From IMG/VR virus record IMGVR_UViG_2534681831_000033, positions 1-11,611 of that record: a stretch of DNA of 11,611 nt, one strand, 5' to 3'. The position numbers and the translations under genes are program-made. Origin of the DNA: a virus. Lineage: Duplodnaviria; Heunggongvirae; Uroviricota; Caudoviricetes. Below are positions 1-11,611 of the stretch, one piece after another. The notes beneath the pieces were generated by a model. It saw only the letters and a list, made by a program, of their open reading frames with translations, did not search any database and was not told the DNA's origin. The number at the start of each line of letters is the position of its first letter. The first letter of the stretch is position 1.

Positions 1-284
1 GAGCCGCACTCGGAGAAGTTGCGTCCATTTTCAGGGGAATGGGGTAAAAACCATCAGTGATATGCAGTATCAATCGATAAGATCCATTTAATTGACGGCG
101 GTGCACTCATGGCACGCAGGCAGTGTTGAATAAACATCCGTTTTTGGGTGTTTTTTTAATCTTTTTGGGATTTAAATTCCTATCGATCAAGAAATGAAAA
201 AAGGCCACGCAGTTGCGCAGCCTGATAAACCCTGGTTAAAATCCACACGATAACAACACAACAATATCAGTATCTCATGCTATT

Positions 285-310
285 GCCCGAACCCATTCGG
301 GCATTTTTTA
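285..310 (+). terminator. Rho-independent terminator-like hairpin: 7-bp stem GCCCGAA / TTCGGGC, 4-nt loop, followed by ATTTTTTA
   Basis: Perfect inverted repeat at 285-291 / 296-302 followed directly by a T-run on the + strand. Confidence 0.5.
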
Positions 311-315
311 CCCAT

Positions 316-339
316 AAAAAAGCCCCTCCGGAGAGGGGC
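316..339 (-). terminator. Rho-independent terminator-like hairpin for leftward transcripts: stem GCCCCTC / GAGGGGC, loop CGGA, then T6 on the - strand
   Basis: Perfect 7-bp inverted repeat at 322-328 / 333-339; the A6 run at 316-321 is a U-tract on the - strand. Sits downstream of all - strand genes in the window. Confidence 0.5.
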
Positions 340-670
340 ATGTTTGCATGCACATTCTTTTTCTTGCATGGTGCCGGGTGCCTCCCGGTGAATTCAGTAT
401 CAGCACCTGAATCCGCGATTATCACATATACCTGGTTGCTGATTGCCCCTCCGCACAGGGGGATTCACCATGCAGTAGTATTTTTAATAAACAGCAAATA
501 AAAAAATCAAGCATTATGCAGGCTGTTTCTTTTTATCACCGGCTACAGCAATACCACAATGCCGCAGACCAGCACCCCATCCGCCAGCACCGACATGATT
601 CTGCTGGTGAAATCCACCATCACCACCAGAAACAGCAGGAGTGCAGCCACAGCCAGGCGCAGTTTTACCG

Positions 671-1011
671 TCACTGGTGATTCTCCAGACGAAGACCCAG
701 AACACCGGCAATCTCTTCCAGCACCTTGCGCTCTTCCGGCTCAATTATTTCTGACGTAAACGCGGACAGCGCAGGCTGATTACGCAGTACCTGTTCGATC
801 TTCGATTTCTAGGAAGCCTCACATTCACCATCTGCACAGGCCACCAGGTAGGCAGCATTAATAACCGCCTGTGCCACATCGCGTTTCTCAAACTTTCCTT
901 TTTCCGGTTAACGTGACACACCAATAACTCTTGTCGAAAAAGCCAGCAAGCTGAAAGACCGGTATTCACCGCCGCCAGCGCGTTTACTGTACTGACGCGA
1001 TTTTCGGACAT
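671..1011 (-). pseudogene. Decayed TerB-like (tellurite-resistance TerB domain) gene; reading switches between three frames and has an in-frame TAG
   Basis: - strand translation gives MSENRVSTVNALAAVNTGLSA in one frame, GFFDK in a second, and KFEKRDVAQAVINAAYLVACADGECEAS*KSKIEQVLRNQPALSAFTSEIIEPEERKVLEEIAGVLGLRLENHQ in a third. The ADG...E pattern resembles TerB from memory. Frame changes fall near A-runs. Confidence 0.45.
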
Positions 1012-1088
1012 AAAAAAAACGCCTGGCGGCAGTTTTTTTCTTACTTTGCCATCGCGTACAAAATAGGCAAAATATCAGATTTATACGA

Positions 1089-1117
1089 AACATACGCGAT
1101 TTAATTGACTTTTGCAA
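1089..1117 (-). promoter_or_regulatory. Sigma70-like promoter (-35 TTGCAA, 17-bp spacer, -10 TATGTT) overlapping the stop codon of the upstream 229-aa gene; a pR'-like position
   Basis: Hexamers read on the - strand: TTGCAA at 1117..1112 and TATGTT at 1094..1089. Followed at 1012-1040 by A7-GC-rich-T8 ending at the next start codon. Confidence 0.3.
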
Positions 1118-1790
1118 TATCTCGTCGTGAAAAGGTCGCTTTTTGTTGCGCTCTTATTTTCACGGAGCAAATCAAGGATTCTCTATCGAGGCGCTTAAAA
1201 ATATCGCACATCTCACGCCAGTAGTTCGCATAATTATGGCTCCAGTTATCAGGCTTAACTCCACACAGTCTGGCAAGCTCCTGTCTCTGGTAGACCTCAC
1301 ACCCGGTAACCCATCCTCTGACATCCTGTGCCGCCAGCCAGATCAACTTCTTCACACGCTCCAGCGTTTTCACTGCAATTTTTCTGGTACCAGACTGAGT
1401 TTTAAATTCATTCCACACCCACTGCGTTATCGCGATCTGATGCTCCCAGCAAATGTTTCCGCCATAACACCACAACAACCACGCCTTCTGATGTTCTTCC
1501 AGTTCCAGAAGGGTACGCCGCCACGATGATGTTGCAAACTCAACAGGACTGACCAGGGCAATTGATGAGCCTTTCGCCAGTGATTGTTTACCCGGGATTG
1601 GGGGATTATCCCGCGTGATCATTTTTCCGGTTACCTCATCGCGGTAACGAATTTTTTTGCGTCTGTAACGCCCTGTATCGAACAGGGCATTTTCCTGCCA
1701 GGCTTCCAGTTGACCTTTTGTCGCCCCACTGAGATCCGCAGTGGCAATCATGAGTTGCTCACGAACAAACTGTAAATACTGGTTATTCAT
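1101..1790 (-). CDS. Phage early/regulatory protein, 229 aa; possibly a phage-82-type Q antiterminator-family protein (assignment uncertain)
   Basis: Long ORF in the track (1101..1796, GTG at 1796). First ATG at 1790 (MNNQYLQF...) is preceded by GAGGTGGGG. Trp-rich, no Walker motifs. Position after the replication genes and before a promoter-like element fits a Q-like role. Confidence 0.5.
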   Translation of the reverse strand: MNNQYLQFVREQLMIATADLSGATKGQLEAWQENALFDTGRYRRKKIRYRDEVTGKMITRDNPPIPGKQSLAKGSSIALVSPVEFATSSWRRTLLELEEHQKAWLLWCYGGNICWEHQIAITQWVWNEFKTQSGTRKIAVKTLERVKKLIWLAAQDVRGWVTGCEVYQRQELARLCGVKPDNWSHNYANYWREMCDIFKRLDRESLICSVKIRAQQKATFSRRDIAKVN

Positions 1791-1874
1791 GCACACCCCA
1801 CCTCTGTAATTTTTATCTCCAGCCGTCCACCAGATACTGGCTTGCCACGTACAATATTGATTTCATCAAACTGC

Positions 1875-2123
1875 TCAAGAGAGTTTTTTGCGGGCATTTT
1901 GCCAGTCCTTTCGTGCCTGTTCAGACGGGAATAACCCGTAGCCGGAGTTGTATACATAACCACTGGCAACCAGCTCTCTGGCAAGAATGCTCATCAGATA
2001 TCTTGTCGCACCTGTTTTAGCTTCCAACTGTCGTAATGTCTCGCGACCGCTCTGGCGCACAAGTTCGACCACCTGCTCTTTAATTTTTTTCCCGCTCTTC
2101 CTGTGTAAAAACTTTTGCCACAA
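1875..2123 (-). CDS. Hypothetical 82-aa protein, possibly a small helix-turn-helix protein
   Basis: ORF track entry with a TTG start at 2123, preceded by a strong AAGGAGG. Sequence has a helical HTH-like segment TLRQLEAKTGATRYLMSILARELV. Confidence 0.4.
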   Translation of the reverse strand: MWQKFLHRKSGKKIKEQVVELVRQSGRETLRQLEAKTGATRYLMSILARELVASGYVYNSGYGLFPSEQARKDWQNARKKLS

Positions 2124-2161
2124 GTCCTCCTTAAAATTACCTCATGACCTGAAATCAACAC

Positions 2162-3127
2162 TTATCCCCTGAAACCAGGCGGAATTTCTGTATCCGGTTC
2201 AGAAATATGATTCACACAACGCTGTACAGGTGAACGTCCCAAGCGGATGACCAGTTCGTCCCATTTTTCGCGGAGTTTTGACGGGCTCATGATGTTTTTT
2301 ACCCAGAATGGATCTCGCTGTACCCGACCAAACATTTCGCAAATTTGTCTGTGGCTTCTGCCATCCAGCATCCGCATTGTGCGCACGTCATTGGCCCAGG
2401 CTGTCCAGTTAGGCTCTTTTGGTCGCATGATCTCTCCATCGTCGCTGGCAGCCTGTTCGTAAAGGTTCACGATCCGCCCCCAAATCCACTGCGCACACGC
2501 CAAATCCTCCCTGCTACCCCACTGGCGTTTTTTCGCACTAAACACAACCGCGTCGGGGTTCCGGATTAAAAAATCCTGTTCAGCGGTCTGCGGGTCCGGT
2601 TGCGAAGCTTCCGGACGAAAAGTGTTTTTATTCTCTGTAGTAATCTCTGTTGTATTCTCTGTAAGATCATCAGGCCATTTTGACCCGATGACATTGGGTC
2701 GTTTTGAACCAATGGAGCGTTTCATTTTGACCTCTTCCATCGTGTCATTTTGACCTGATGGAGCGGCGCATTTTGAACCGATGGATTCGTTCAATTTGCC
2801 ACCATCTAAAAGCTCGTTCCCATAGTTGATCGTGTAGAAATTGGTCATATCGCGCTTTGATTTATTGAGCTTTTCACAACGCAAAAGCCCCAGCGTTTTC
2901 AGACTTGCAAACGCGCGCTTTAACGTTGACTCTGACCAGAATGGGAACTGTTCCAGCCATTGTTCCGTTGTGTTGTAAATCCAGCGAACACCATCACATT
3001 CCATGCCGGAATTGGTATCTCTCAACCAGTAATGCAACTGCTGCAACACAATGGCTTCATTTAAGCCAATCTTCATCGCAAGCTGTGTGTTTATAACCAG
3101 TGGGCGTTCAGCAAAAAGAAGGCTCAT
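2162..3127 (-). CDS. Phage replication initiator (lambda O-like replisome organizer) with an N-terminal DNA-binding domain, an iteron-encoded linker and a C-terminal domain
   Basis: ORF 2162..3181 (TTG at 3181). The first ATG is at 3127 (MSLLFAERPLVINTQLAMKIGLNEAIVLQQLHYWL...). Repeated SIGSK peptide motifs are encoded by DNA iterons at 2676-2806, as in lambda O. Alternative start ATG at 3076. Confidence 0.75.
   Translation of the reverse strand: MSLLFAERPLVINTQLAMKIGLNEAIVLQQLHYWLRDTNSGMECDGVRWIYNTTEQWLEQFPFWSESTLKRAFASLKTLGLLRCEKLNKSKRDMTNFYTINYGNELLDGGKLNESIGSKCAAPSGQNDTMEEVKMKRSIGSKRPNVIGSKWPDDLTENTTEITTENKNTFRPEASQPDPQTAEQDFLIRNPDAVVFSAKKRQWGSREDLACAQWIWGRIVNLYEQAASDDGEIMRPKEPNWTAWANDVRTMRMLDGRSHRQICEMFGRVQRDPFWVKNIMSPSKLREKWDELVIRLGRSPVQRCVNHISEPDTEIPPGFRG
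2676..2806. repeat. Six direct iterons (consensus CATTTTGA(A/C)C-n-GATGG, about 23-bp period) within the initiator gene; putative prophage origin of replication
   Basis: Repeat units start at 2676, 2701, 2723, 2746, 2769 and 2792. Flanked at 2620-2665 by an AT-rich segment with three TCTCTGT(A/T) repeats. Confidence 0.7.
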
Positions 3128-3397
3128 AATTCCATCCAGCTTTTTGTTGGTATTGCTGTCGATACGCAAGTTTGAAAGCAATTGCTTTTTCTATAAGTTC
3201 GTCAGTTTCACGATCCACTACGGCAGGATCAGCAAAAAGCAGTCCGGACTCCACCACATCGCCATATTCTTTGTTTAACCCGGCGATCATGTACGTGATG
3301 CTTTTTCCGTCACTAATTTCACGATACAACCTGAAATCATTAATCCGGATAGCCTCCATAATTGCAGGCACTAGCGCCGTGAACTTTTCACGCTTAT
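3108..3397 (-). pseudogene. C-terminal fragment of a YdaT-family (cII-position) gene separated from its N-terminus by the IS insertion
   Basis: After removing the IS and one TAT copy, the - strand frame from 4942 continues in frame through 3397 to the stop at 3108, giving ...KIFERWKAIDTRD|KREKFTALVPAIMEAIRINDF... (about 173 aa). Confidence 0.6.
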
Positions 3398-3451
3398 TGA
3401 ACCGCCCCGGAAATCCTGGAGACTAAACTCCCTGAGAAAGAGGTAAACAGG

Positions 3452-3778
3452 ATGACTAAAAATACTCGTTTTTCCCCCGAAGTCCGTCAGCGGGCGATTC
3501 GTATGGTTCTGGAAAGTCAGGATGAATATGACTCACAGTGGGCGGCAATTTGTTCCATTGCCCCAAAGATTGGCTGTACGCCGGAGACTCTGCGTGTCTG
3601 GGTTCGCCAGCATGAGCGGGATACCGGGGGCGGTGATGGTGGGCTCACCAGCGCTGAACGTCAGCGTCTGAAAGAGCTGGAACGTGAAAATCGTGAACTG
3701 CGCCGCAGTAACGATATCCTTCGCCAGGCTTCCGCTTATTTTGCGAAGGCGGAGTTCGACCGCCTCTGGAAAAAATGA
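3452..3778 (+). CDS. IS3-family transposase OrfA (HTH DNA-binding subunit)
   Basis: 108-aa [26 protein letters not shown]... ending at the A6 run 3770-3775 where orfB begins in the -1 frame. Confidence 0.85.
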
Positions 3779-4665
3779 TGCCACTGCTGGATAAGCTGCG
3801 TGAGCAGTACGGGGTCGGACCGGTATGCAGCGAACTGCATATTGCCCCGTCAACGTATTACCATTGTCAGCAACAGCGACATCATCCGGATAAACGCAGT
3901 GCCCGTGCGCAGCACGACGACTGGCTGAAGAGAGAGATACAGCGCGTATACGATGAAAATCATCAGGTGTACGGTGTGCGTAAAGTCTGGCGTCAGTTGT
4001 TACGGGAAGGAATCAGGGTGGCCAGATGTACAGTGGCACGTCTCATGGCGGTTATGGGACTTGCCGGTGTTCTCCGGGGTAAAAAGGTCCGTACGACCAT
4101 CAGCCGGAAAGCCGTTGCCGCAGGCGACCGCGTAAACCGTCAGTTCGTGGCAGAACGACCTGACCAGCTGTGGGTGGCTGATTTTACTTACGTCAGCACA
4201 TGGCAGGGCTTCGTCTATGTGGCGTTTATCATTGATGTGTTTGCCGGATACATCGTGGGGTGGCGGGTCTCATCGTCTATGGAAACGACATTCGTGCTGG
4301 ATGCGCTGGAGCAGGCGTTGTGGGCCCGTCGTCCGTCTGGCACCATCCATCACAGCGATAAAGGCTCTCAGTATGTGTCACTGGCCTATACGGAGCGACT
4401 AAAAGAAGCCGGATTACTGGCATCAACAGGGAGTACAGGCGACTCGTATGACAACGCGATGGCTGAGAGCATCAATGGTCTTTACAAAGCGGAGGTAATA
4501 CACCGTAAGAGCTGGAAAAACCGTGCAGAAGTGGAACTGGCCACACTAACGTGGGTGGACTGGTATAACAATCGACGATTGCTGGGAAGGCTGGGCCATA
4601 CTCCTCCGGCAGAAGCAGAAAAAGCTTATTATGCTTCCATCGGAAACGATGATCTGGCAGCCTGA
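3775..4665 (+). CDS. IS3-family transposase OrfB (DDE catalytic domain), normally expressed as an OrfAB fusion by -1 frameshifting
   Basis: 296-aa ORF with an rve-type DDE region (WVADFTYV...HSDKGSQY...DNAMAES). Overlaps orfA in the -1 frame. Confidence 0.85.
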
Positions 4666-4707
4666 GTTCACAGATAAAACACTCTCCAGGAAACCCGGGG
4701 CGGTTCA

Positions 4708-4942
4708 TATCCCTAGTGTCGATAGCCTTCCAGCGTTCGAATATCTTCACTCGATTAACGCCAAGCGCTCGCTGATCAACCGCGCCACCTTCATCTGTGA
4801 CACGCTGAACATCGATGTTCGGGCGCTCTTTCAAAGCCCAGAATGATTCAGTGATTAATATCGTCGCCTGCTCCTGTGTCATTCCTGGTCGACATATCCA
4901 GGCATCCAGAGCCTCACGAGCCTGTTCAGGAGTGATTTTCAT
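4708..4942 (-). pseudogene. N-terminal fragment of the IS-disrupted YdaT-family gene
   Basis: ATG at 4942 (MKITPEQAREALDAWICRPG...). The track ORF 4472..4942 reads through into the IS, so residues after about 78 are IS-derived. Confidence 0.6.
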
Positions 4943-5153
4943 TGTTCAACCGCCCCGCCCGCTTCGTCTTACGATATTCGTCATAAACCTTGGGATCATA
5001 CAGAAGCTCGCCGCCAGATGCCTCCTGTAGACGCATCGCGCGACCTTCAGGAACCAGCTCTTGCCATTGAGAAACAGCAGATGGGTCAACGCCAGCAGCT
5101 TTCGCTACTTTGGCTTTCGTACCGTAAAAATTAATTACGTCTGATTTAAACAT
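4926..5153 (-). CDS. Cro-like small regulator of the DicC/YdaS family
   Basis: Track ORF 4926..5180. The second ATG at 5153 (MFKSDVINFYG...) is preceded by GGAGGTGCG and gives 75 aa. Divergent from the repressor gene. C-terminus PEGRAMRLQEASGGEL...YRKTKRAGRLNNENHS. Confidence 0.75.
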   Translation of the reverse strand: MFKSDVINFYGTKAKVAKAAGVDPSAVSQWQELVPEGRAMRLQEASGGELLYDPKVYDEYRKTKRAGRLNNENHS

Positions 5154-5230
5154 CGCACCTCCAATATTGAGTTTTCTCAAAGCTAATCACTCAAGGAATC
5201 TCAAGTCAAGGGTTATTAAGATATCTAAAT
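5154..5230. promoter_or_regulatory. Divergent promoter/operator region between the Cro-like and repressor genes
   Basis: Inverted repeat TTGAG-TTTT-CTCAA at 5167-5180. Direct CTCAAG / TCAAGG repeats at 5190-5211. A TTGACT hexamer on the - strand. Confidence 0.5.
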
Positions 5231-5638
5231 ATGAACGAGAAAACTTTAGGTCAACGCATTAGAGAAAGACGTAAGCAGGTAGGCTTAAGTCAAAACGGTT
5301 TAAGCAAAGCTGCTGGCGTATCTGGCTCATCAATTTCATTATGGGAAAGTGACCATACAGCCCCGCGTGGGCAAAATTTGCATCGCCTCGCCGAGGTATT
5401 GCAATGTTCACCAACCTGGATACTGTTTGGCGACGAGGACAAAACACCAGCTCCCCCTGTTTCACTCGATAGTGCCTTAGACTTATCGGAAGATGAGTTA
5501 GAGATGCTGCGTTTGTATCGCGCACTTCCTAAATCAGAGCAACAAGCACAACTCAGCGAACTCCGCGCCCGCGTTGAGAATTTTAATCGCCTGTTCACCG
5601 AGCTATTAGAGGCTCGCAAACGCAACAAGCATCAATAA
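5231..5638 (+). CDS. DicA-family HTH (XRE-type) prophage repressor, 135 aa
   Basis: N-terminal HTH (LSQNGLSKAAGVSGSSISLWE). C-terminal LQCSPTWILFGDEDK...ALPKSEQQAQLSELRARVENFNRLF resembles DicA of the K-12 Qin prophage from memory. Confidence 0.85.
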   Translation: MNEKTLGQRIRERRKQVGLSQNGLSKAAGVSGSSISLWESDHTAPRGQNLHRLAEVLQCSPTWILFGDEDKTPAPPVSLDSALDLSEDELEMLRLYRALPKSEQQAQLSELRARVENFNRLFTELLEARKRNKHQ

Positions 5639-5702
5639 TCATCCCTTCACAAAATTTTAAAGCCTTACATTTCAATGTATTGGCTTTATCTTGCGCCAAT
5701 AC

Positions 5703-5754
5703 TTGAGTTTTCTCATCAAAAAACCTTGACGAAAAATAATGAGAAAACTAAATT
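5703..5754 (+). promoter_or_regulatory. Putative repressor-controlled promoter for the downstream operon: operator-like 13-mer plus -35 TTGACG, 17-bp spacer, -10 TAAATT
   Basis: TTGAGTTTTCTCA at 5703-5715 is identical to the 13-mer at 5167-5179. TTGACG at 5726-5731 and TAAATT at 5749-5754. Confidence 0.5.
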
Positions 5755-5830
5755 ACCTCCATCAACACACCGCACGGTGTTCTCAGCAAACAGTTCCGCC
5801 ACCCCGGCGTTAAGGGGAAATGAGGTCAGC

Positions 5831-5983
5831 ATGGATACTATCGATCTTGGCAACAGCGAATCTCTGGTATGTGGCGTGTTCCCCAACCAGGACGGTACGT
5901 TCACCGCGATGACATATACCAAAAGCAAAACGTTTAAAACCGAATCTGGCGCGCGTTGCTGGTTAGCCAGAAACACTGACTGA
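5831..5983 (+). CDS. Small 50-aa protein, ydfA-like (first gene of the dicB-type operon)
   Basis: ATG at 5831 preceded by GAGG (MDTIDLGNSESLVCGVFPNQDGTF...). The track ORF 5675..5983 has a longer, unlikely N-terminus. Confidence 0.65.
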   Translation: MDTIDLGNSESLVCGVFPNQDGTFTAMTYTKSKTFKTESGARCWLARNTD

Positions 5984-5994
5984 TGAGGCTGACG

Positions 5995-6360
5995 ATGGAA
6001 TTTAAAGATTTACCGTCTGATGTACAGAAAACAGCAGCTCATACATTGCATTCTGTGCTGCGAGAAATCGGGAAAGATATTGCAAGCGAGCCAGCAAAAG
6101 ATCTGGCCCGGAAAATCAAGACCGCTTTCGTTGAGCTTTATAATGTTGGCACTGACTCTGAAACTGTCGAGACCAAGACCGTAAGTTCACCAATATTCTC
6201 ACTTGAGCCAGGCGTATTAGCAGGTGAAATGTGCACCGAGATTTCCAGCGAACTGCTTCCGGTAATACGAGAAGCAATTTGCCGTCGCGGTTTGGATGGA
6301 AGTTACGATCATGACGTCCTGCAAGTTCTCAGGACAATGGTGACTTCACTGGGGATTTGA
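5995..6360 (+). CDS. Hypothetical 121-aa protein
   Basis: ATG at 5995 preceded by GAGG (MEFKDLPSDVQK...). The ATG at 5983 overlaps the upstream stop but lacks a ribosome-binding site. Occupies the K-12 ydfB/ydfC position; no recognisable domain. Confidence 0.55.
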   Translation: MEFKDLPSDVQKTAAHTLHSVLREIGKDIASEPAKDLARKIKTAFVELYNVGTDSETVETKTVSSPIFSLEPGVLAGEMCTEISSELLPVIREAICRRGLDGSYDHDVLQVLRTMVTSLGI

Positions 6361-6529
6361 TCCCTGCGTCCTCTAACCTTTTGATATAGCGGTCCTCCAA
6401 GAAGCGGTAAATTTTGTCGAAATCATCTTTCCCCTCTGGTTTATTCAGAGGATTACAGGACCCGTAAGTAGCGGCATACATTTCAACCGTTTTATCAAAA
6501 ATATAAGAGACAAATTCTTCTTTAGTCAT
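6329..6529 (-). CDS. Hypothetical 66-aa acidic protein encoded antisense to the dicB-type operon
   Basis: ATG at 6529 preceded by AAGAAGGAA (MTKEEFVSYIFDKTVEMYAATYG...). AT-rich codon usage. 3' end overlaps the 121-aa gene by 32 bp, convergently. Confidence 0.5.
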   Translation of the reverse strand: MTKEEFVSYIFDKTVEMYAATYGSCNPLNKPEGKDDFDKIYRFLEDRYIKRLEDAGIKSPVKSPLS

Positions 6530-6596
6530 ATAGATTTCCTTCTTGGTTATTCGGAATAAGAAGGATACCACCTCGCCTGACGTGGTTAAAAGCAGG

Positions 6597-6779
6597 CACA
6601 CAACACGAAAGCGCACGGCGAAGTTCGTCTCACTGTACGGTGTCGTTAAATTTAATTCGACCGTGCGCTTCCGGTTGTGGCAACCCGCGAAATGGCGCGG
6701 CGGTAAGTATGGCGGGGTTATTCCTTCCCCGTTGAGGACACCGGGTTGTCAGGTTGACCATACGCTTAAGTGACAACCC
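6597..6779 (+). promoter_or_regulatory. Highly structured untranslated leader upstream of dicF: a long imperfect hairpin (about 6599-6618 with 6661-6680) and a 9-bp stem (6743-6751 with 6771-6779)
   Basis: CACAACACGAAAGCGCACGG pairs with CCGTGCGCTTCCGGTTGTGG. GGGTTGTCA pairs with TGACAACCC. No credible ORF on either strand. Likely processing or structural elements of the DicF precursor. Confidence 0.45.
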
Positions 6780-6804
6780 CGCTGCAACGCCCTCTGTTAT
6801 CAAT

Positions 6805-6862
6805 TTTCTGGTGACGTTTGGCGGTATCAGTTTTACTCCGTGACTGCTCTGCCGCCGTTTTT
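6805..6862 (+). ncRNA. dicF: DicF small RNA (ftsZ-targeting sRNA of Qin-type prophages), including its intrinsic terminator
   Basis: TTTCTGGTGACGTTTGGCGGTATCAGTTTTACTCCGTGACTGCTCUGCCGCC followed by a T-run matches my memory of the 53-nt DicF. Lies between the ydfA-like genes and dicB, as in K-12. Confidence 0.8.
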
Positions 6863-7031
6863 AAAGTGAATTTTGTGATGCGGTGAATGCGGCTAAGCGC
6901 ACGCGGAACAGTTAAAACCAAAAACAGTGTTATGGGTGGATTCTCTGTATCCGGCGTTAATTGTTAACTGGTTAACGTCACCTGGAGGCACCAGGCACTG
7001 CATCACAAAATTCATTGTTGAGGACGCGATA

Positions 7032-7220
7032 ATGAAAACGTTATTACCAAACGTTAATACGTCTGAAGGTTGTTTTGAAATTGGTGTCACTATCAGTAAC
7101 CCTGTATTTACTGAAGATGCCATTAACAAGAGAAAACAAGAACGGGAGCTATTAAATAAAATATGCATTGTTTCAATGCTGGCTCGTTTACGTCTGATGC
7201 CAAAAGGATGTGCACAATGA
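7032..7220 (+). CDS. dicB: DicB cell-division inhibitor (62 aa)
   Basis: ATG at 7032 preceded by GAGGA. MKTLLPNVNTSEGCFEIGVTISNPVFTEDAINKRKQERELLNKICIVSMLARLRLMPKGCAQ matches my memory of DicB. The track ORF 6927..7220 has an extended N-terminus. Confidence 0.85.
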   Translation: MKTLLPNVNTSEGCFEIGVTISNPVFTEDAINKRKQERELLNKICIVSMLARLRLMPKGCAQ

Positions 7221-7408
7221 ATTCAGCATTTGCGCTTGTTCTGACAGTTTTTCTTGTTTCCGGAGAGCCAGTTGATATTGCAGTCAGTGTTCACAGGACA
7301 ATGCAGGAGTGTATGACTGCAGCAACCGAACAGAAAATTCCCGGTAACTGTTACCCGGTCGATAAAGTTATTCACCAGGATAATATCGAAATCCCGGCAG
7401 GTCTTTAA
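7217..7408 (+). CDS. ydfD: YdfD-like small membrane/lysis protein (63 aa)
   Basis: ATG at 7217 overlaps the dicB stop (ATGA). MNSAFALVLTVFLVSGEPVDIAVSV... has a hydrophobic N-terminus. Synteny dicB-ydfD. Confidence 0.75.
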   Translation: MNSAFALVLTVFLVSGEPVDIAVSVHRTMQECMTAATEQKIPGNCYPVDKVIHQDNIEIPAGL

Positions 7409-7501
7409 AACAGTTCCGTAATAAATATCCGGTTTCATTCTTATATGCCAGCAATGGCAGGGATTTGTTCATCCTTAAATCTGTCATGAGGTTAAAACAA
7501 A

Positions 7502-9484
7502 ATGAGTAAAGTCTTTATTTGCGCCGCTATTCCTGACGAACTGGCAACAAGGGAAGAAGGCGCTGTGGCTGTAGCCACAGCCATTGAAGCTGGCGACGAA
7601 CGCCGTGCTCGAGCAAAATTTCACTGGCAGTTCCTGGAACATTATCCGGCTGCTCAGGACTGCGCTTATAAATTTATTGTCTGCGAGGATAAACCTGGCA
7701 TACCCCGCCCTGCCCTCGATTCATGGGATGCTGAATATATGCAGGAAAACCGCTGGGATGAGGAATCCGCTTCCTTTATTCCGGTCGAACCAGAATCCGA
7801 TCCGATGAACGTCAATTTTGACAAGCTGTCCCTTGAAGTACAGAACGCGGTCCTGGTTAAGTTCGGTACATGTGAAAACATCACCGTTGATATGGCGATT
7901 GACGCGCAGGAATTACTGCAGGAAGACGTTGCTACCTTTGACGGGCATATCGTTGAAGCACTGATGAAAACGCCTGAAATTAACGCTATGTATCCGGAAC
8001 GCAAACTGTTCGCTATCGGATGGGTTAAACACAAATGTAATCCGGGTGCCAAATGGCCCGAAATTCAGGCTGAATTACGTAACTGGAAAAAACGGCAGGA
8101 CGCAGAGCGCAAAGAGACTGGAAAATACACGTCTGTTGTTGATCTCGCCAGCGCCAGAGTCAATCAACAGCACACTGAAAACTCAGCAGGAAAAATCAAC
8201 CCAGTCACTGCCGCCATTTGTCGCGAATACAAGCAGACATGGAAAACGCTGGATGAAGAACTGGCCTACGCTCTCTGGCCTGGTGATGTGGATGCCGGAA
8301 ACATTGACGGCAGCATCCATCGCTGGGCAAAAAATGAAGTTATCGACAACGACCGCGAAGACTGGAAGCGTATCTCGGCATCAATGCGCAAACAGCCTGA
8401 TGCCCTTCGCTACGACCGCCAGACTATTTTTGGCCTTGTCCGTGAACGTCCGATCGACATTCACAAAGACCCTGTGGCACTGAACAAATACATTACTGAA
8501 TACCTGACTACAAAGGGCGTGTTTGAGAATGAAGAAACAGACCTGGGCACTGTTGATGTTCTCCAGTCATCAGAAACACAAACTGATGCAGTGGAAACTG
8601 AGGTATCTGATATCCCAAAAAATGAAACCGCGCCGGAAGCTGAACCATCTGTAGAGCGTGAGGGGCCGTTCTATTTCCTCTTCGCAGATAAGGACGGAGA
8701 AAAATACGGTCGCGCAAACAAACTTTCTGGTCTGGATAAGGCACTGGCTGCTGGCGCCACTGAAATCACAAAAGAAGAATATTTTGCCCGAAAAAATGGC
8801 ACATACACGGGCTTACCGCAAAATGTAGATACCGCTGAAGATTCAGAACAACCAGAGCCGATAAAAGTTACCGCTGACGAAGTAAACAAAATTATGCAGG
8901 CAGCCAATATCAGCCAGCCTGACGCCGATAAGTTGCTTGCTGCATCACGTGGTGAATTTGTTGAAGGGATTAGTGACCCGAATGATCCGAAATGGGTAAA
9001 GGGGATTGAAACCCGCGATTCTGTAAACCAGAACCAGCAAGAATCGGAACAGAACGACCAGAAAGCGGAACAAAACAGCCCAAATACGCAACAAAACGAG
9101 CCAGAAACGAAACAACCTGAGCCAGTAGCGCAACAGGAACCGGAAAAAGTCTGCACCGCCTGCGGTCAGACCGGCGGCGGCAACTGCCCTGATTGTGGCG
9201 CGGTGATGGGCGACGCAACATATCAAGAAACATTCGATGAAGAATATCAGGTTGAAGTTCAGGAAGATGATCCGGAGGAAATGGAAGGCGCTGAACATCC
9301 ACACAAGGAGAACACTGGCGGCAATCAGCATCACAATAGCGATAATGAAACTGGCGAGACGGCAGATCACTCAATTAAGGTGAACGGTCATCAAGAAATC
9401 ACATCCACCAGCAGGACGTGTGACCATCTAATGATCGACCTTGAAACCATGGGAAAAATCCTGATGCCCCGATCATCTCAATAG
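7502..9484 (+). CDS. Large acidic protein (660 aa) in the ydfE/RecE-N-terminal-like position, with a C-x2-C-x7-C-x2-C zinc-ribbon motif; its C-terminus carries the Exo I motif (MIDLETMG) of a DEDDh exonuclease domain and then terminates after a frame change
   Basis: ATG at 7502 preceded by GAGG. Long ORF with acidic and Q/N-rich low-complexity segments. The last 25 residues begin a DnaQ-like exonuclease domain that continues in the -1 frame in ORF 9517..9972. Confidence 0.7.
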   Translation: MSKVFICAAIPDELATREEGAVAVATAIEAGDERRARAKFHWQFLEHYPAAQDCAYKFIVCEDKPGIPRPALDSWDAEYMQENRWDEESASFIPVEPESDPMNVNFDKLSLEVQNAVLVKFGTCENITVDMAIDAQELLQEDVATFDGHIVEALMKTPEINAMYPERKLFAIGWVKHKCNPGAKWPEIQAELRNWKKRQDAERKETGKYTSVVDLASARVNQQHTENSAGKINPVTAAICREYKQTWKTLDEELAYALWPGDVDAGNIDGSIHRWAKNEVIDNDREDWKRISASMRKQPDALRYDRQTIFGLVRERPIDIHKDPVALNKYITEYLTTKGVFENEETDLGTVDVLQSSETQTDAVETEVSDIPKNETAPEAEPSVEREGPFYFLFADKDGEKYGRANKLSGLDKALAAGATEITKEEYFARKNGTYTGLPQNVDTAEDSEQPEPIKVTADEVNKIMQAANISQPDADKLLAASRGEFVEGISDPNDPKWVKGIETRDSVNQNQQESEQNDQKAEQNSPNTQQNEPETKQPEPVAQQEPEKVCTACGQTGGGNCPDCGAVMGDATYQETFDEEYQVEVQEDDPEEMEGAEHPHKENTGGNQHHNSDNETGETADHSIKVNGHQEITSTSRTCDHLMIDLETMGKILMPRSSQ

Positions 9485-9516
9485 GTGCAATATTTTTCGA
9501 TCCGCAAACCGGAGAT

Positions 9517-9972
9517 ATGGGACCGGAATTTAGTAAGACTATCGATCTGGAAACTGCTGGCGGAGTCATTGATCGGAACACCATTAAATGGTGGCTTAAG
9601 CAATCACGCGAAGCGCAATCTGCCATTATGACCGATGAAATCCCGTTAGATGATGCACTGTTACAATTGCGGGAATTTATCGACGAAAACTCCGGTGAAT
9701 TTTTTGTTCAGGTTTGGGGAAATGGAGCCAACTTCGACAACACGATTTTGCGCCGTTCATACGAACGGCAGGGGATCCCCTGCCCGTGGCGTTACTACAA
9801 CGATCGCGATGTACGCACAATCGTTGAGCTGGGGAAAGCCATAGACTTCGATGCCAGAACGGCTATTCCATTCGAAGGTGAGCGCCATAATGCACTTGAT
9901 GACGCCCGTTACCAGGCAAAATACGTTTCAGTTATCTGGCAAAAACTGATCCCGAGTCAGGCTGATTCTTAA
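9517..9972 (+). CDS. DEDDh (DnaQ-like) 3'-5' exonuclease domain fragment with Exo II and Exo III motifs; out-of-frame continuation of the preceding gene
   Basis: Motifs WGNGANFDNTIL and HNALDDARY. The -1 frame is open from 9455 (KNPDAPIISIGAIFFDPQTGD-MGPEF...), joining to ...MIDLETMG. GGAGAT precedes the ATG at 9517. Confidence 0.55.
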   Translation: MGPEFSKTIDLETAGGVIDRNTIKWWLKQSREAQSAIMTDEIPLDDALLQLREFIDENSGEFFVQVWGNGANFDNTILRRSYERQGIPCPWRYYNDRDVRTIVELGKAIDFDARTAIPFEGERHNALDDARYQAKYVSVIWQKLIPSQADS

Positions 9973-9983
9973 TGTTCAACTGT

Positions 9984-10018
9984 CGCCGGTTGTGACTGGT
10001 ATTCTGCAACCGGCGCTC
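9984..10018 (+). promoter_or_regulatory. Perfect 9-bp inverted repeat (CGCCGGTTG / CAACCGGCG) with a 17-nt loop between the exonuclease gene and xis
   Basis: Seen directly in the sequence. No following U-tract, so more likely a protein-binding site or RNA structure than an intrinsic terminator. Confidence 0.3.
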
Positions 10019-10044
10019 GTCTGATGTAAGAGATAAAGAAATCG

Positions 10045-10296
10045 ATGAGCGAAGTAATCATGATTGTCTCTCCCGGCAAATGGGTATCCGAAGAGCAGTT
10101 AATTGCGCTGAAAGGAATAAAAAAAGGTACGTTAAAAAAGGCCCGGGAAAAATCGTTTATGGAAGGAAGGGAATATAAGCATGTCGCTCATGACGGTATG
10201 CCATGGGATAACAGTCCATGCTTTTACAACCTGGAAGAAATTGATCGCTGGATTGAGCGCCAGGCATCAGCGAGACCAAGACGTCATCTTACTTGA
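10045..10296 (+). CDS. Phage excisionase-like protein (83 aa) immediately upstream of the integrase
   Basis: Small basic ORF (MSEVIMIVSPGKWVSEEQLIALKGIKKGTLKKAR...) in the canonical xis-int arrangement. Start uncertain; ATG at 10060 is an alternative. Confidence 0.65.
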   Translation: MSEVIMIVSPGKWVSEEQLIALKGIKKGTLKKAREKSFMEGREYKHVAHDGMPWDNSPCFYNLEEIDRWIERQASARPRRHLT

Positions 10297-10330
10297 CTAA
10301 AAGCCACACTAACTAATGAGAGAAGTTGAA

Positions 10331-11611
10331 ATGAAATATCCGACAGGCGTGGAAAACCATGGAGGGAAATTACGTATCTGGTTTGTTTATAAAGGCGTAA
10401 GAGTCAGGGAAAATCTGGGGGTTCCTGACACAGCAAAAAACAGGCGCGTTGCAGGTGAACTACGCTCCTCTGTTTGTTACGCAATAAAAACTGGTGTTTT
10501 CGACTATGCAAAACAGTTTCCCTCCTCACGCAATCTGGAAAAATTTGGTGAGGCCCGACAAGATTTAACCATAAAAGAACTGGCTGAAAAATTTCTGGCA
10601 CTGAAAGAAAATGAAGTCGCCAAAACATCACTCAACACATACCGTGCCGTCATCAAAAATATCCTGAGCATAATCGGTGAAAAAAATCTTGCCTCATCGA
10701 TTAATAAAGAAAAATTACTGGAGGTTCGTAAAGAGCTACTGACTGGATACCAGATCCCCAAAAGTAACTATATTGTTACACAACCAGGGAGATCGGCTGT
10801 AACTGTAAATAATTACATGACAAATCTTAACGCCGTGTTCCAGTTTGGTGTTGATAACGGTTACCTGGCAGATAATCCGTTTAAGGGGATCTCGCCATTA
10901 AAGGAATCAAGAACCATTCCGGATCCTCTTTCGCGGGAGGAATTTATCCGTCTTATCGATGCGTGCAGAAATCAGCAAGCAAAAAATTTATGGTGTGTTT
11001 CTGTTTATACTGGCGTTCGCCCTGGTGAGCTGTGTGCACTTGGATGGGAGGACATAGATCTGAAAAATGGAACAATGATGATCAGGAGAAATTTAGCAAA
11101 AGACCGTTTCACGGTACCAAAAACACAGGCGGGAACCAATCGGGTCATTCATCTTATTAAGCCAGCAATCGACGCTCTCCGGAGTCAGATGACATTAACG
11201 AGACTGAGTAAAGAGCATATCATTGATGTTCACCTCAAAGAGTATGGCAGAACAGAAAAACAAAAATGCACCTTTGTTTTTCAACCTGAAGTGTCAGCGA
11301 GAGTAAAAAATTATGGTGACCATTTTACCGTTGACTCAATAAGGCAGATGTGGGACGCAGCGATAAAACGTGCCGGACTCCGCCATCGAAAATCATATCA
11401 GTCGAGACATACTTATGCCTGCTGGTCGCTGACAGCTGGTGCTAACCCGGCATTTATAGCAAACCAGATGGGCCATGCAGATGCGCAAATGGTATTTCAG
11501 GTATACGGAAAATGGATGTCTGAAAACAATAATGCACAGGTAGCTTTGTTAAATACACAGTTAAGCGAGTTTGCCCCAACCATGCCCCATAACGAAGCAA
11601 TAAAAAATTAA
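10331..11611 (+). CDS. Phage tyrosine integrase (lambda-type site-specific recombinase); stop codon at the last bases of the window
   Basis: Track ORF 10316..11611. The ATG at 10331 (MKYPTGVENHGGKLRIWF...) is preceded by GAGAGAAG. C-terminal catalytic region has R...H-x-x-R...Y-type residues (RHTYACWSLTAG, GHADAQMVFQVYGKW). Confidence 0.85.
   Translation: MKYPTGVENHGGKLRIWFVYKGVRVRENLGVPDTAKNRRVAGELRSSVCYAIKTGVFDYAKQFPSSRNLEKFGEARQDLTIKELAEKFLALKENEVAKTSLNTYRAVIKNILSIIGEKNLASSINKEKLLEVRKELLTGYQIPKSNYIVTQPGRSAVTVNNYMTNLNAVFQFGVDNGYLADNPFKGISPLKESRTIPDPLSREEFIRLIDACRNQQAKNLWCVSVYTGVRPGELCALGWEDIDLKNGTMMIRRNLAKDRFTVPKTQAGTNRVIHLIKPAIDALRSQMTLTRLSKEHIIDVHLKEYGRTEKQKCTFVFQPEVSARVKNYGDHFTVDSIRQMWDAAIKRAGLRHRKSYQSRHTYACWSLTAGANPAFIANQMGHADAQMVFQVYGKWMSENNNAQVALLNTQLSEFAPTMPHNEAIKN

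Follow-up and report, generated by a model that had tools for sequence, protein, structure and literature searches.

An origin of replication inside the initiator gene is a textbook principle, and the DNA studied here raises the question of whether a prophage of Escherichia coli carries such an origin in a gene named only for a hypothetical protein. The stretch comprises 11,611 nucleotides (nt) of the IMG/VR virus record IMGVR_UViG_2534681831_000033 (positions 1 to 11,611; hereafter the window). It comes from E. coli O111:H8, where a defective lambdoid prophage occupies the rspB/ynfB (Qin) site, and is 100% identical to NZ_CP077473.1. A first reading of the letters by a model (the original prediction) had proposed an iteron array and an AT-rich unwinding segment within an O-like initiator gene, arranged as in ori-lambda. 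Our analysis indicates that positions 2594-2806 are very probably the replication origin of this mEp460-type lambdoid prophage, placed within the portion of its own initiator gene that encodes the linker. A lambda-style origin is in itself of a known kind. The analysis adds the conservation across phyla, the DNA-level constraint on 12-bp repeats (12-mers) next to the iterons, and a rule that links residue 67 of the initiator to the iteron sequence. The candidate origin contains the following elements.

2668 to 2806, minus strand: six 23-bp iterons (centre pattern, Tandem Repeats Finder (TRF), repeat search, autocorrelation, relatives)
2629 to 2664, minus strand: three 12-bp repeats (T/A)ACAGAGA(N)TAC, TCTCTGT on the plus strand; candidate DNA-unwinding element (DUE) (repeat search, stability, codons)
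2617 to 2631, minus strand: A/T run AATAAAAACACTTTT (coding strand), extending the low-stability tract (sequence)
2594 to 2616, no strand assigned: imperfect palindrome GTCCGGTTGC-GAA-GCTTCCGGAC, 8/10 arm pairs (sequence, alignment to relatives)

Six phased iterons within the initiator gene

The array is composed of six units on the minus strand, at 2784-2806, 2761-2783, 2738-2760, 2715-2737, 2692-2714, and 2668-2690 (units 1 to 6), with the consensus CATCnGGT-CAAAATG-ACCnGATG. Their centres follow the pattern CAAA[AT][TC]G, with the first C at 2798, 2775, 2752, 2729, 2706, and 2682, and are separated by 23, 23, 23, 23, and 24 bp. Units 3, 5, and 6 each make up a 23-bp palindrome with the form CATCnGGTCAAAATGnCCnGATG. 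The original prediction of six direct repeats with a 23-bp period in the initiator linker is borne out in position, and the repeats lie on the minus strand.

The periodicity was recovered by independent searches. TRF reports a 23-bp period at 2702-2785, and a repeat search returned 23-nt units at 2668-2690, 2692-2714, 2738-2760, and 2761-2783. The lag-23 autocorrelation of 2670-2812 is 0.55, versus 0.337 ± 0.021 for shuffled sequence, and none of 2000 shuffles reached 0.55. In addition, GGTCAAAATG occurs four times within about 100 bp at no more than one mismatch, while chance predicts about 1.3 matches on both strands of the entire 11.6-kb window.

Because 23 is not a multiple of 3, the iteron core shifts its reading frame along the gene. 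The codon phases of units 1-6 are 3, 2, 1, 3, 2, and 2, and their cores are translated as GGKLN, IGSKC, SGQND, EVKMK, IGSKR, and IGSKW. The repeated SIGSK peptide noted at first is thus encoded by three of the iterons, whereas the other three give GGKLN, SGQND, and EVKMK; the repeated peptide arises incidentally, from three units that share a frame. Only one other segment of the window is strongly periodic. It is a 21-bp (7-codon) tandem repeat of 4-5 copies at 9032-9135, which sits in frame within the large RecE-like exonuclease gene and is unrelated to the iterons.

A low-stability tract of 12-mers and a palindrome adjoin the iterons

The two strands of the 12-mers are distinguished as the ACAGAGAATAC strand and the GTATTCTCTGT strand. 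The TCTCTGT copies, which the original prediction placed in an AT-rich segment, are located at 2632-2638, 2644-2650, and 2656-2662 with a period of 12 and lie within the least stable duplex of the gene. The segment 2625-2664 is the lowest-stability 40-bp duplex of the initiator gene and falls at the 99.5th percentile across the 11.6-kb window, and the GC content is 0.30 over 2620-2659.

The 12-bp repeats stay in frame with the gene, and the protein shows TE(N/I)T three times; for this reason the 12-mers were tested through codon usage. Among 105 linker TExT motifs from 44 loci, Thr is encoded by ACA in 104 and Glu by GAG in 104, whereas elsewhere in the same genes ACA accounts for 20% and GAG for 45% (Fisher p = 2e-61 and 4e-32, respectively). 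The codon following ACA-GAG has the form A-N-T, and its free middle base yields Asn, Ile, Thr, or Ser. These codon statistics indicate that the constraint in the 12-mers acts on nucleotides, not amino acids.

The palindrome at 2594-2616 is a third element, situated just outside the range 2620-2810 of the original prediction, and it occupies the position of the right-hand inverted repeat of ori-lambda. A strict-stem inverted-repeat search missed it owing to two inner mismatches, and it was located through alignment to relatives. In relatives the palindrome reads GTCnGG-TTGC-NNN-GCAA-CCnGAC and is present after the 12-mers in many loci. Its inner arms covary among them as TTGC/GCAA, TTTC/GAAA, TTCC/GGAA, and CTCA/TGAG.

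The initiator joins a predicted winged-helix N-domain to a lambda-O-like C-domain

The iterons lie between the regions that encode the two main parts of the initiator.

2162 to 3127, minus strand: O-like replication initiator gene, 321 amino acids (aa), ATG at 3127 (open reading frame (ORF) and translation, PHROG 391, RefSeq)
2804 to 3127, minus strand: predicted N-terminal origin-binding domain, winged helix, aa 1 to ~108 (AlphaFold2 model, fold matches)
2246 to 2687, minus strand: segment including the lambda-O-like C-terminal domain (aa 147-294), starting at the last iteron (BLASTP versus lambda O)
2165 to 2227, minus strand: DnaT-like C-terminal tail VQRCVNHISEPDTEIPPGFRG, putative contact for host replication proteins (DnaT chain identity, NCBIfam)

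The product is named 'hypothetical protein' in RefSeq (WP_000054483.1). It matches PHROG 391 'replication initiation O-like' (E 1.7e-92, residues 17-321 versus profile positions 11-298 of 298) and is 98.1% identical over its full length to the protein of phage mEp460_ev081. A Pfam profile search gave no domain match for the initiator, and the DnaT-tail match in NCBIfam is the sole domain assignment from NCBIfam and Pfam together. Phage_rep_O (PF04492) did not match the protein even at E up to 10, whereas lambda O as positive control scored 123 bits (E 5.7e-36). The RepA_N profile (PF06970) likewise gave no sequence match. Weak matches of the initiator to the Slx4 and YLR146W-A profiles were dismissed as chance.

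The tblastn searches reveal a modular initiator, whose N part resembles one protein group and whose C part resembles another. Residues 1 to ~130 share 46-52% identity with 'DnaD-domain' replication proteins of Staphylococcus phages, and weaker matches (~27-50%) extend to replication proteins from phages of Bacillus, Listeria, Vibrio, and Bacteroides. Over residues 170-315 the initiator shares ~35% identity with the C-terminal region of O from lambda, phage 21, and Shiga toxin (Stx) phages. In line with this, BLASTP aligns aa 147-294 with lambda O aa 135-270 at 34% identity (E 2e-28). The description of the protein as O-like therefore holds for its PHROG assignment and its C-domain, and not for the N-domain, which has no Phage_rep_O match. 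The predicted N-domain is not of the lambda O family, and only the C-domain is lambda-O-like.

The AlphaFold2 model of the N-domain (predicted local distance difference test score (pLDDT) 86.5) contains a helix at residues 66-78, followed by a beta wing. Residue S67 (codon 2927-2929) is located in the first turn of this helix, the predicted recognition helix. The best Protein Data Bank matches of the model are the N-terminal domains of staphylococcal plasmid RepA proteins (4pql, 4pt7, and 5kbj), with template modelling (TM) scores of 0.56-0.63 and E 3e-3; a Rep-DNA complex is among them. The N-domain homologue search yielded only fragments shorter than 190 aa, which were used for alignment and structure prediction, not for domain architecture.

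Residue 67 covaries with the iteron arms

Across relatives, the iterons have an invariant palindromic centre, CAAWWTG, and lineage-specific arms. The arms change symmetrically, as GGT..ACC, GTG..CAC, GGG..CCC, GGA..TCC, GGAT..ATCC, ACGA..TCGT, and CTGTT..AACAG. The residue at position 67 (WSE-S-TLKR) predicts the base adjacent to the iteron centre in 39 of 39 loci. Ser, Ala, or Asn occurs with T (18/18), Asp with G (15/15), and Lys or Arg with A (6/6). The mutual information between residue 67 and the base class is 1.46 bits, and the next best column reaches 0.85. On a neighbour-joining tree built with the residue-67 column masked, the base class switches at least six times with no mismatch. 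This correlative coevolution is the strongest available evidence for the repeats as the cognate, predicted binding sites of the N-domain.

The candidate origin elements recur with the N-domain across phyla

A scan of viral contigs gave 80 near-identical E. coli loci with no diversity and was replaced by a survey of one genome per bacterial species. Scanning these genomes with the N-domain alignment gave 80 loci, 75 of them non-redundant, from Enterobacterales, Pseudomonas, Acinetobacter, Campylobacterales, Thiothrix, Comamonas, Bacillus, Staphylococcus, lactobacilli, and others. For ~55 of the 80 loci, an unbiased periodicity scan (lags 18-28, about ±2 kb around each locus) gave its strongest signal at lag 22-24 and at +290 to +410 bp relative to the gene start. 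Chains of at least three phased centres are present in 34 of the 75 loci, versus 1 of 2708 control blocks. The codon phases of the centres are evenly spread (42/56/44) among relatives. In addition, 45 of the 75 loci have between two and five ACAGAGAnTAC 12-mers after the last iteron. The repeats, which were expected to recur in homologous initiator genes if they act as an origin, are kept across phyla and coevolve with the protein.

The C-terminal domains of the surveyed proteins are mostly unrelated to lambda O and to each other, and a common layout follows the N-domain in dozens of Gram-negative and Gram-positive species, with any C-terminal domain. The array follows the N-domain, not the C-domain; the iterons of phage fPfSau02, for instance, adjoin a DnaD-type C-domain. 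The three candidate DNA elements travel with the N-domain. A blastn search aligns the repeat region with Staphylococcus phage genes at 85% identity over the iterons, and the 12-mer tract by itself matches otherwise unrelated phage genes.

Among close relatives, a 301-bp origin segment is 96.7-98.3% identical to the isolated phages mEp460_ev081, PhiR42_1, and HannyBb, and iteron 2 of the window is nearer to the consensus than that of mEp460_ev081. The segment 2585-2820 was found in 1977 of 5426 complete E. coli genomes (~36%), with up to four copies per genome. Carriers include enterohaemorrhagic E. coli (EHEC) O111, B-lineage laboratory strains, and C43(DE3), and the host gene is a 'hypothetical protein' in every one of the matches listed.

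A 16.4-kb circular plasmid of Bacillus weihaiensis also encodes a homologue of the initiator (1798-2628, minus strand). Its iterons, three of the GGACAAATTGACC type, have a 22-bp spacing and precede ACCAGAGAATAATACAGAGAAT, and the annotation of this plasmid contains no second initiator. This arrangement suggests that the cassette can drive an autonomous replicon.

The survey also returned E. coli-type loci of 99-100% identity in metagenome-assembled genomes labelled Veillonella, Bacillota, and Collinsella, as well as loci from assemblies of Nocardioides and Micromonospora with a C-terminal tail almost the same as that of a Staphylococcus caprae locus. Both groups look like binning or assembly contamination.

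A DnaT-like tail at the C-terminus of the initiator

The tail VQRCVNHISEPDTEIPPGFRG shares 14 of 21 residues with the very C-terminal end of DnaT, a primosomal protein of the host (2ru8, 6aep, and 9zbt), and matches positions 160-179 of the NCBIfam DnaT profile. An IPxGF(R/K)G tail recurs on homologues with otherwise unrelated C-domains. Possibly the tail is a short linear motif that imitates DnaT and thereby brings in replication proteins of the host; a literature search returned no binding partner of the DnaT C-terminal tail. Homologues from Bacillus and Neobacillus end in the acidic-aromatic tails FRFDDET and FYFDDE, which resemble the C-terminal interaction tails of the SSB type. These tails would give the same N-domain/origin cassette another kind of recruitment motif.

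In the intact phage mEp460_ev081, the gene after the initiator encodes a 133-aa LygF/DUF977 (Ren-like) protein. Over the ~4 kb shown from the initiator to where Q begins, the annotation has no P-, DnaC-, or helicase-type gene, and the mEp460 replication module appears to consist of a single gene.

Comparison with known replication systems

The window matches the layout of ori-lambda, as annotated in NC_001416 and described in PMC7466680, in order, orientation, spacing, and inter-domain linker position. In NC_001416, four lambda iterons start at 39034, 39054, 39078, and 39101, read TCCCTCAAAACGAGGGA, and are followed by a purine-rich AT tract and an inverted repeat, all inside O. The same layout, six iterons in Stx phages, A-tract bending, and binding of AT-rich single strands by O are described in PMC7466680.

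In both systems the known or candidate origin sits midway in the initiator gene, where the linker is encoded. Lambda and the window have iterons that are imperfect inverted repeats centred on an A-tract (TCCCTCAAAACGAGGGA in lambda versus GGTCAAAATGACC in the window), and both sets are spaced 20-24 bp apart (20, 24, and 23 bp in lambda, 23 or 24 bp in the window). They are followed in the same order and orientation by an AT-rich tract, purine-rich on the coding strand, and an inverted repeat. Moreover, the lambda O C-terminal domain is homologous to that of the window protein, with an alignment that starts at the last window iteron, and the Stx phages 933W and P27 have six iterons, equal to the window in number (PMC7466680). 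Several features differ. The N-terminal DNA-binding domain of lambda O is unrelated in sequence to that of the window protein, and the iteron sequences are different. The lambda AT-rich tract has no 12-bp ACAGAGAnTAC repeats, whereas the window tract is built from them. The lambda module contains a P-type loader, while the intact relative mEp460 has no annotated loader gene, and a DnaT-like C-terminal tail is present only in the window protein.

Among solved folds, those nearest to the N-domain model belong to RepA_N initiators of plasmids from Gram-positive bacteria, such as pSK41 Rep, whose repeats are also central in their own gene. According to PMC5703833, the N-terminal winged helix of pSK41 Rep binds four Rep boxes placed centrally in rep. 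The same text describes a linker encoded by the origin, a host-specific and exchangeable C-domain, binding aided by A/T-tract bending, and an in-frame deletion that removes the central linker. However, sequence similarity to the window N-domain is not detectable, and the fold match is modest (E 3e-3, TM ~0.6). RepA_N initiators belong to plasmids, whereas the window has a prophage context and a lambda-O-like C-domain.

The N-domain also resembles in sequence the DnaD-domain initiators of temperate phages of Staphylococcus, Bacillus, and Listeria (for example 96, 42E, phiIPLA88, and fPfSau02), whose N-domains are homologous (~46-52% identical). Their iteron is essentially the same (AGGTCAAAATGAC, 22-23 bp), ACAGAGA motifs come next, and the position in the gene is the same. 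Phage fPfSau02 has three AGGTCAAAATGACCCGAC units, spaced 22/23 bp, after its homologous N-domain, and ACAGAGA motifs follow the units. These systems have three iterons instead of six, and fPfSau02 differs in its DnaB_2/DnaD-type C-domain and in a phage replicative helicase gene two genes downstream. Experimental origin mapping for DnaD-domain phage initiators was not found in the open-access literature searched.

The 12-mers also resemble the 13-mers in the DUEs of oriC and of iteron plasmids such as RK2 (oriV), which are short direct repeats in an AT-rich element adjoining iterons; the window 12-mers are similarly constrained in sequence. A plasmid winged-helix Rep binds one strand of the DUE repeats sequence-specifically, and every repeat is required (PMC4081077). 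The window repeats differ in their 12-bp period and unrelated consensus, and the analogy is our inference. The staphylococcal plasmid pPR9, in which the Rep N-domain and ori are replaced by a phage-like segment, was dropped as a lead. Its domain is reported as Pfam HTH_36, for which the window protein has no match, and pPR9 is not among the plasmid matches listed.

The prophage context and the state of the locus

The initiator gene is preceded by an insertion sequence (IS).

3398 to 4707, plus strand: IS1203 (IS3 family, 1310 bp) in a cII-like gene, with a 3-bp ATA target duplication (RefSeq, ALIL frameshift pseudoknot, flanks)

IS1203 is a simple insertion 271 bp upstream of the initiator gene. 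Its flanks rejoin exactly onto the mEp460 cII-like gene, and the surrounding sequence is otherwise collinear with mEp460. No sigma-70-like promoter was found between IS1203 and the initiator gene, so both expression and the transcriptional activation that the early promoter would provide are probably impaired. The predicted cis elements and the initiator ORF are intact, and IS1203 separates both from the early promoter. The expectation of an intact origin agrees, at the level of sequence, with the full-length gene, its 98% identity to mEp460, and the simple upstream insertion. The view that the IS cripples the rest of the module is right in that transcription from the early promoter is probably impaired; nothing else appears lost, since intact relatives have no P-like gene. 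Activation in trans by a related prophage is plausible.

On the downstream side, the DUF977/Ren-like gene is frameshifted and truncated (1875-2123) and abuts a gene fragment (1787-1877), which is followed by the antiterminator Q. The nin-type region of mEp460 has thus been deleted in this prophage. Elsewhere in the window, Rfam matches above the gathering score correspond to AgvB (anti-GcvB small RNA, 248-309, plus strand), STnc100 small RNA (310-499, minus strand), and DicF (6806-6857, plus strand). Accessory RNAs of this kind are typical of Qin-like and EHEC prophages.

Alternative explanations

The iterons might be binding sites of the initiator with a mainly regulatory task, such as autorepression, handcuffing copy control, or partition, while replication starts elsewhere. 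Plasmid iterons are reported to have such dual roles, and coevolution proves a protein-DNA relationship only, not initiation. We nevertheless consider this explanation unlikely. The array always adjoins a low-stability tract and a palindrome in ori-lambda order, and a place within the coding sequence, downstream of the start, is poor for an operator. Moreover, for ~55 of the 80 loci scanned over about ±2 kb, the strongest periodicity did not come from any alternative origin-like repeat. A different possibility is that the conserved DNA at the domain boundary is a recombination joint for swapping the N- and C-terminal modules of the initiator. The 23-bp phasing, the covariation of the palindromic arms, the residue-67 match, and the lowest duplex stability would all be left unexplained by such a joint, which makes it very unlikely as the origin of the pattern, even though the C-domains are swapped exactly downstream of the 12-mer and palindrome region. 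This region is also near-identical among loci with unrelated C-domains, and the blastn matches of the 12-mer tract alone in otherwise unrelated phage genes point the same way. Where a site is conserved for its function, recombination there is more probably an effect than the cause.

Least credible is a repeat that serves the peptide linker (SIGSK, TExT) and has no DNA function, or plain low complexity arising by chance. The protein does contain IGSK three times and TE(N/I)T three times, and the 12-bp repeats are in frame. But the iteron core is read in all three frames. ACA and GAG each account for 104 of 105 cases, compared with 20% and 45% elsewhere, and the neighbouring amino acid is free to vary. 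The observed periodicity, for its part, was matched by 0 of 2000 shuffles. The peptide-repeat and chance explanations were rejected on these frame, codon, and shuffle analyses.

Several observations weigh against an origin at 2594-2806, or limit how far it can be pressed. Iteron units 1 and 4 are degenerate, and the window palindrome, with 8/10 arm pairs, is weaker than that of relatives. About one third of the distant loci, mainly from Firmicutes, show weak periodicity or no clear array by the patterns used. The arm classes behind the agreement in 39 loci were set by our own regular expression and a majority rule, and the covariation between residue 67 and the arm base is correlative only. 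Binding, melting, and replication by this initiator family are predicted from sequence analysis, and the roles that we propose for the 12-mers and the DnaT-like tail are inferred. A search of the open-access literature returned papers on lambda and Stx phages, RepA_N, and plasmid Rep proteins, but nothing on this initiator family, and its matches to the iteron core and 12-mers were unrelated primers and oligonucleotides only. Finally, the origin is probably silent in this strain unless the initiator is supplied in trans.

A proposed model for initiation and its implications

Taking 2594-2806 as the origin, the elements may act in succession. Dimers of the initiator N-domain would bind the palindromic 23-bp iterons, with residue 67 reading the base beside the CAAAATG centre, as the coevolution suggests. 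The six A-tract-centred sites, spaced ~2.2 helical turns apart, could then form a bent or wrapped nucleoprotein complex, by analogy with the lambda O-some. This complex would melt the adjoining low-stability ACAGAGAnTAC tract. The strict sequence conservation of the 12-mers suggests that one strand may be bound sequence-specifically, as a plasmid Rep does on DUE 13-mers. The lambda-O-like C-domain and the DnaT-like tail might, more speculatively, recruit the host helicase machinery; intact relatives have no loader gene of their own.

A wider proposal, which we put forward tentatively and hold to be rather doubtful as a whole, is that the N-domain, the iterons, and the 12-mers constitute a portable origin cassette. 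It would be self-contained and would have spread across bacterial phyla, joined to interchangeable, host-specific C-modules (lambda-O-like, DnaD-like, and others) that often end in a DnaT-mimicking IPxGFRG tail, and this tail would bypass any loader encoded by the phage. The near-invariant 12-mers would be a sequence-specific single-strand site of the N-domain, and residue 67 (Ser, Asp, or Lys/Arg) would set the iteron specificity and hence the incompatibility among co-resident prophages.

The gain from this locus is one of annotation and of a tractable system, not of conceptual surprise. A very common prophage replication gene is annotated as 'hypothetical', and Pfam lacks a model for its DNA-binding domain. 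How initiators other than DnaA open DNA could be studied through the conserved 12-mers, and the link between residue 67 and the iteron base provides a simple, testable recognition rule for a winged-helix family common to phages and plasmids of Gram-negative and Gram-positive bacteria. Knowledge of the cis origin helps to predict which defective prophages a related phage, co-resident or superinfecting, could still amplify in trans, and such amplification bears on the mobilisation of virulence genes in strains with multiple prophages.

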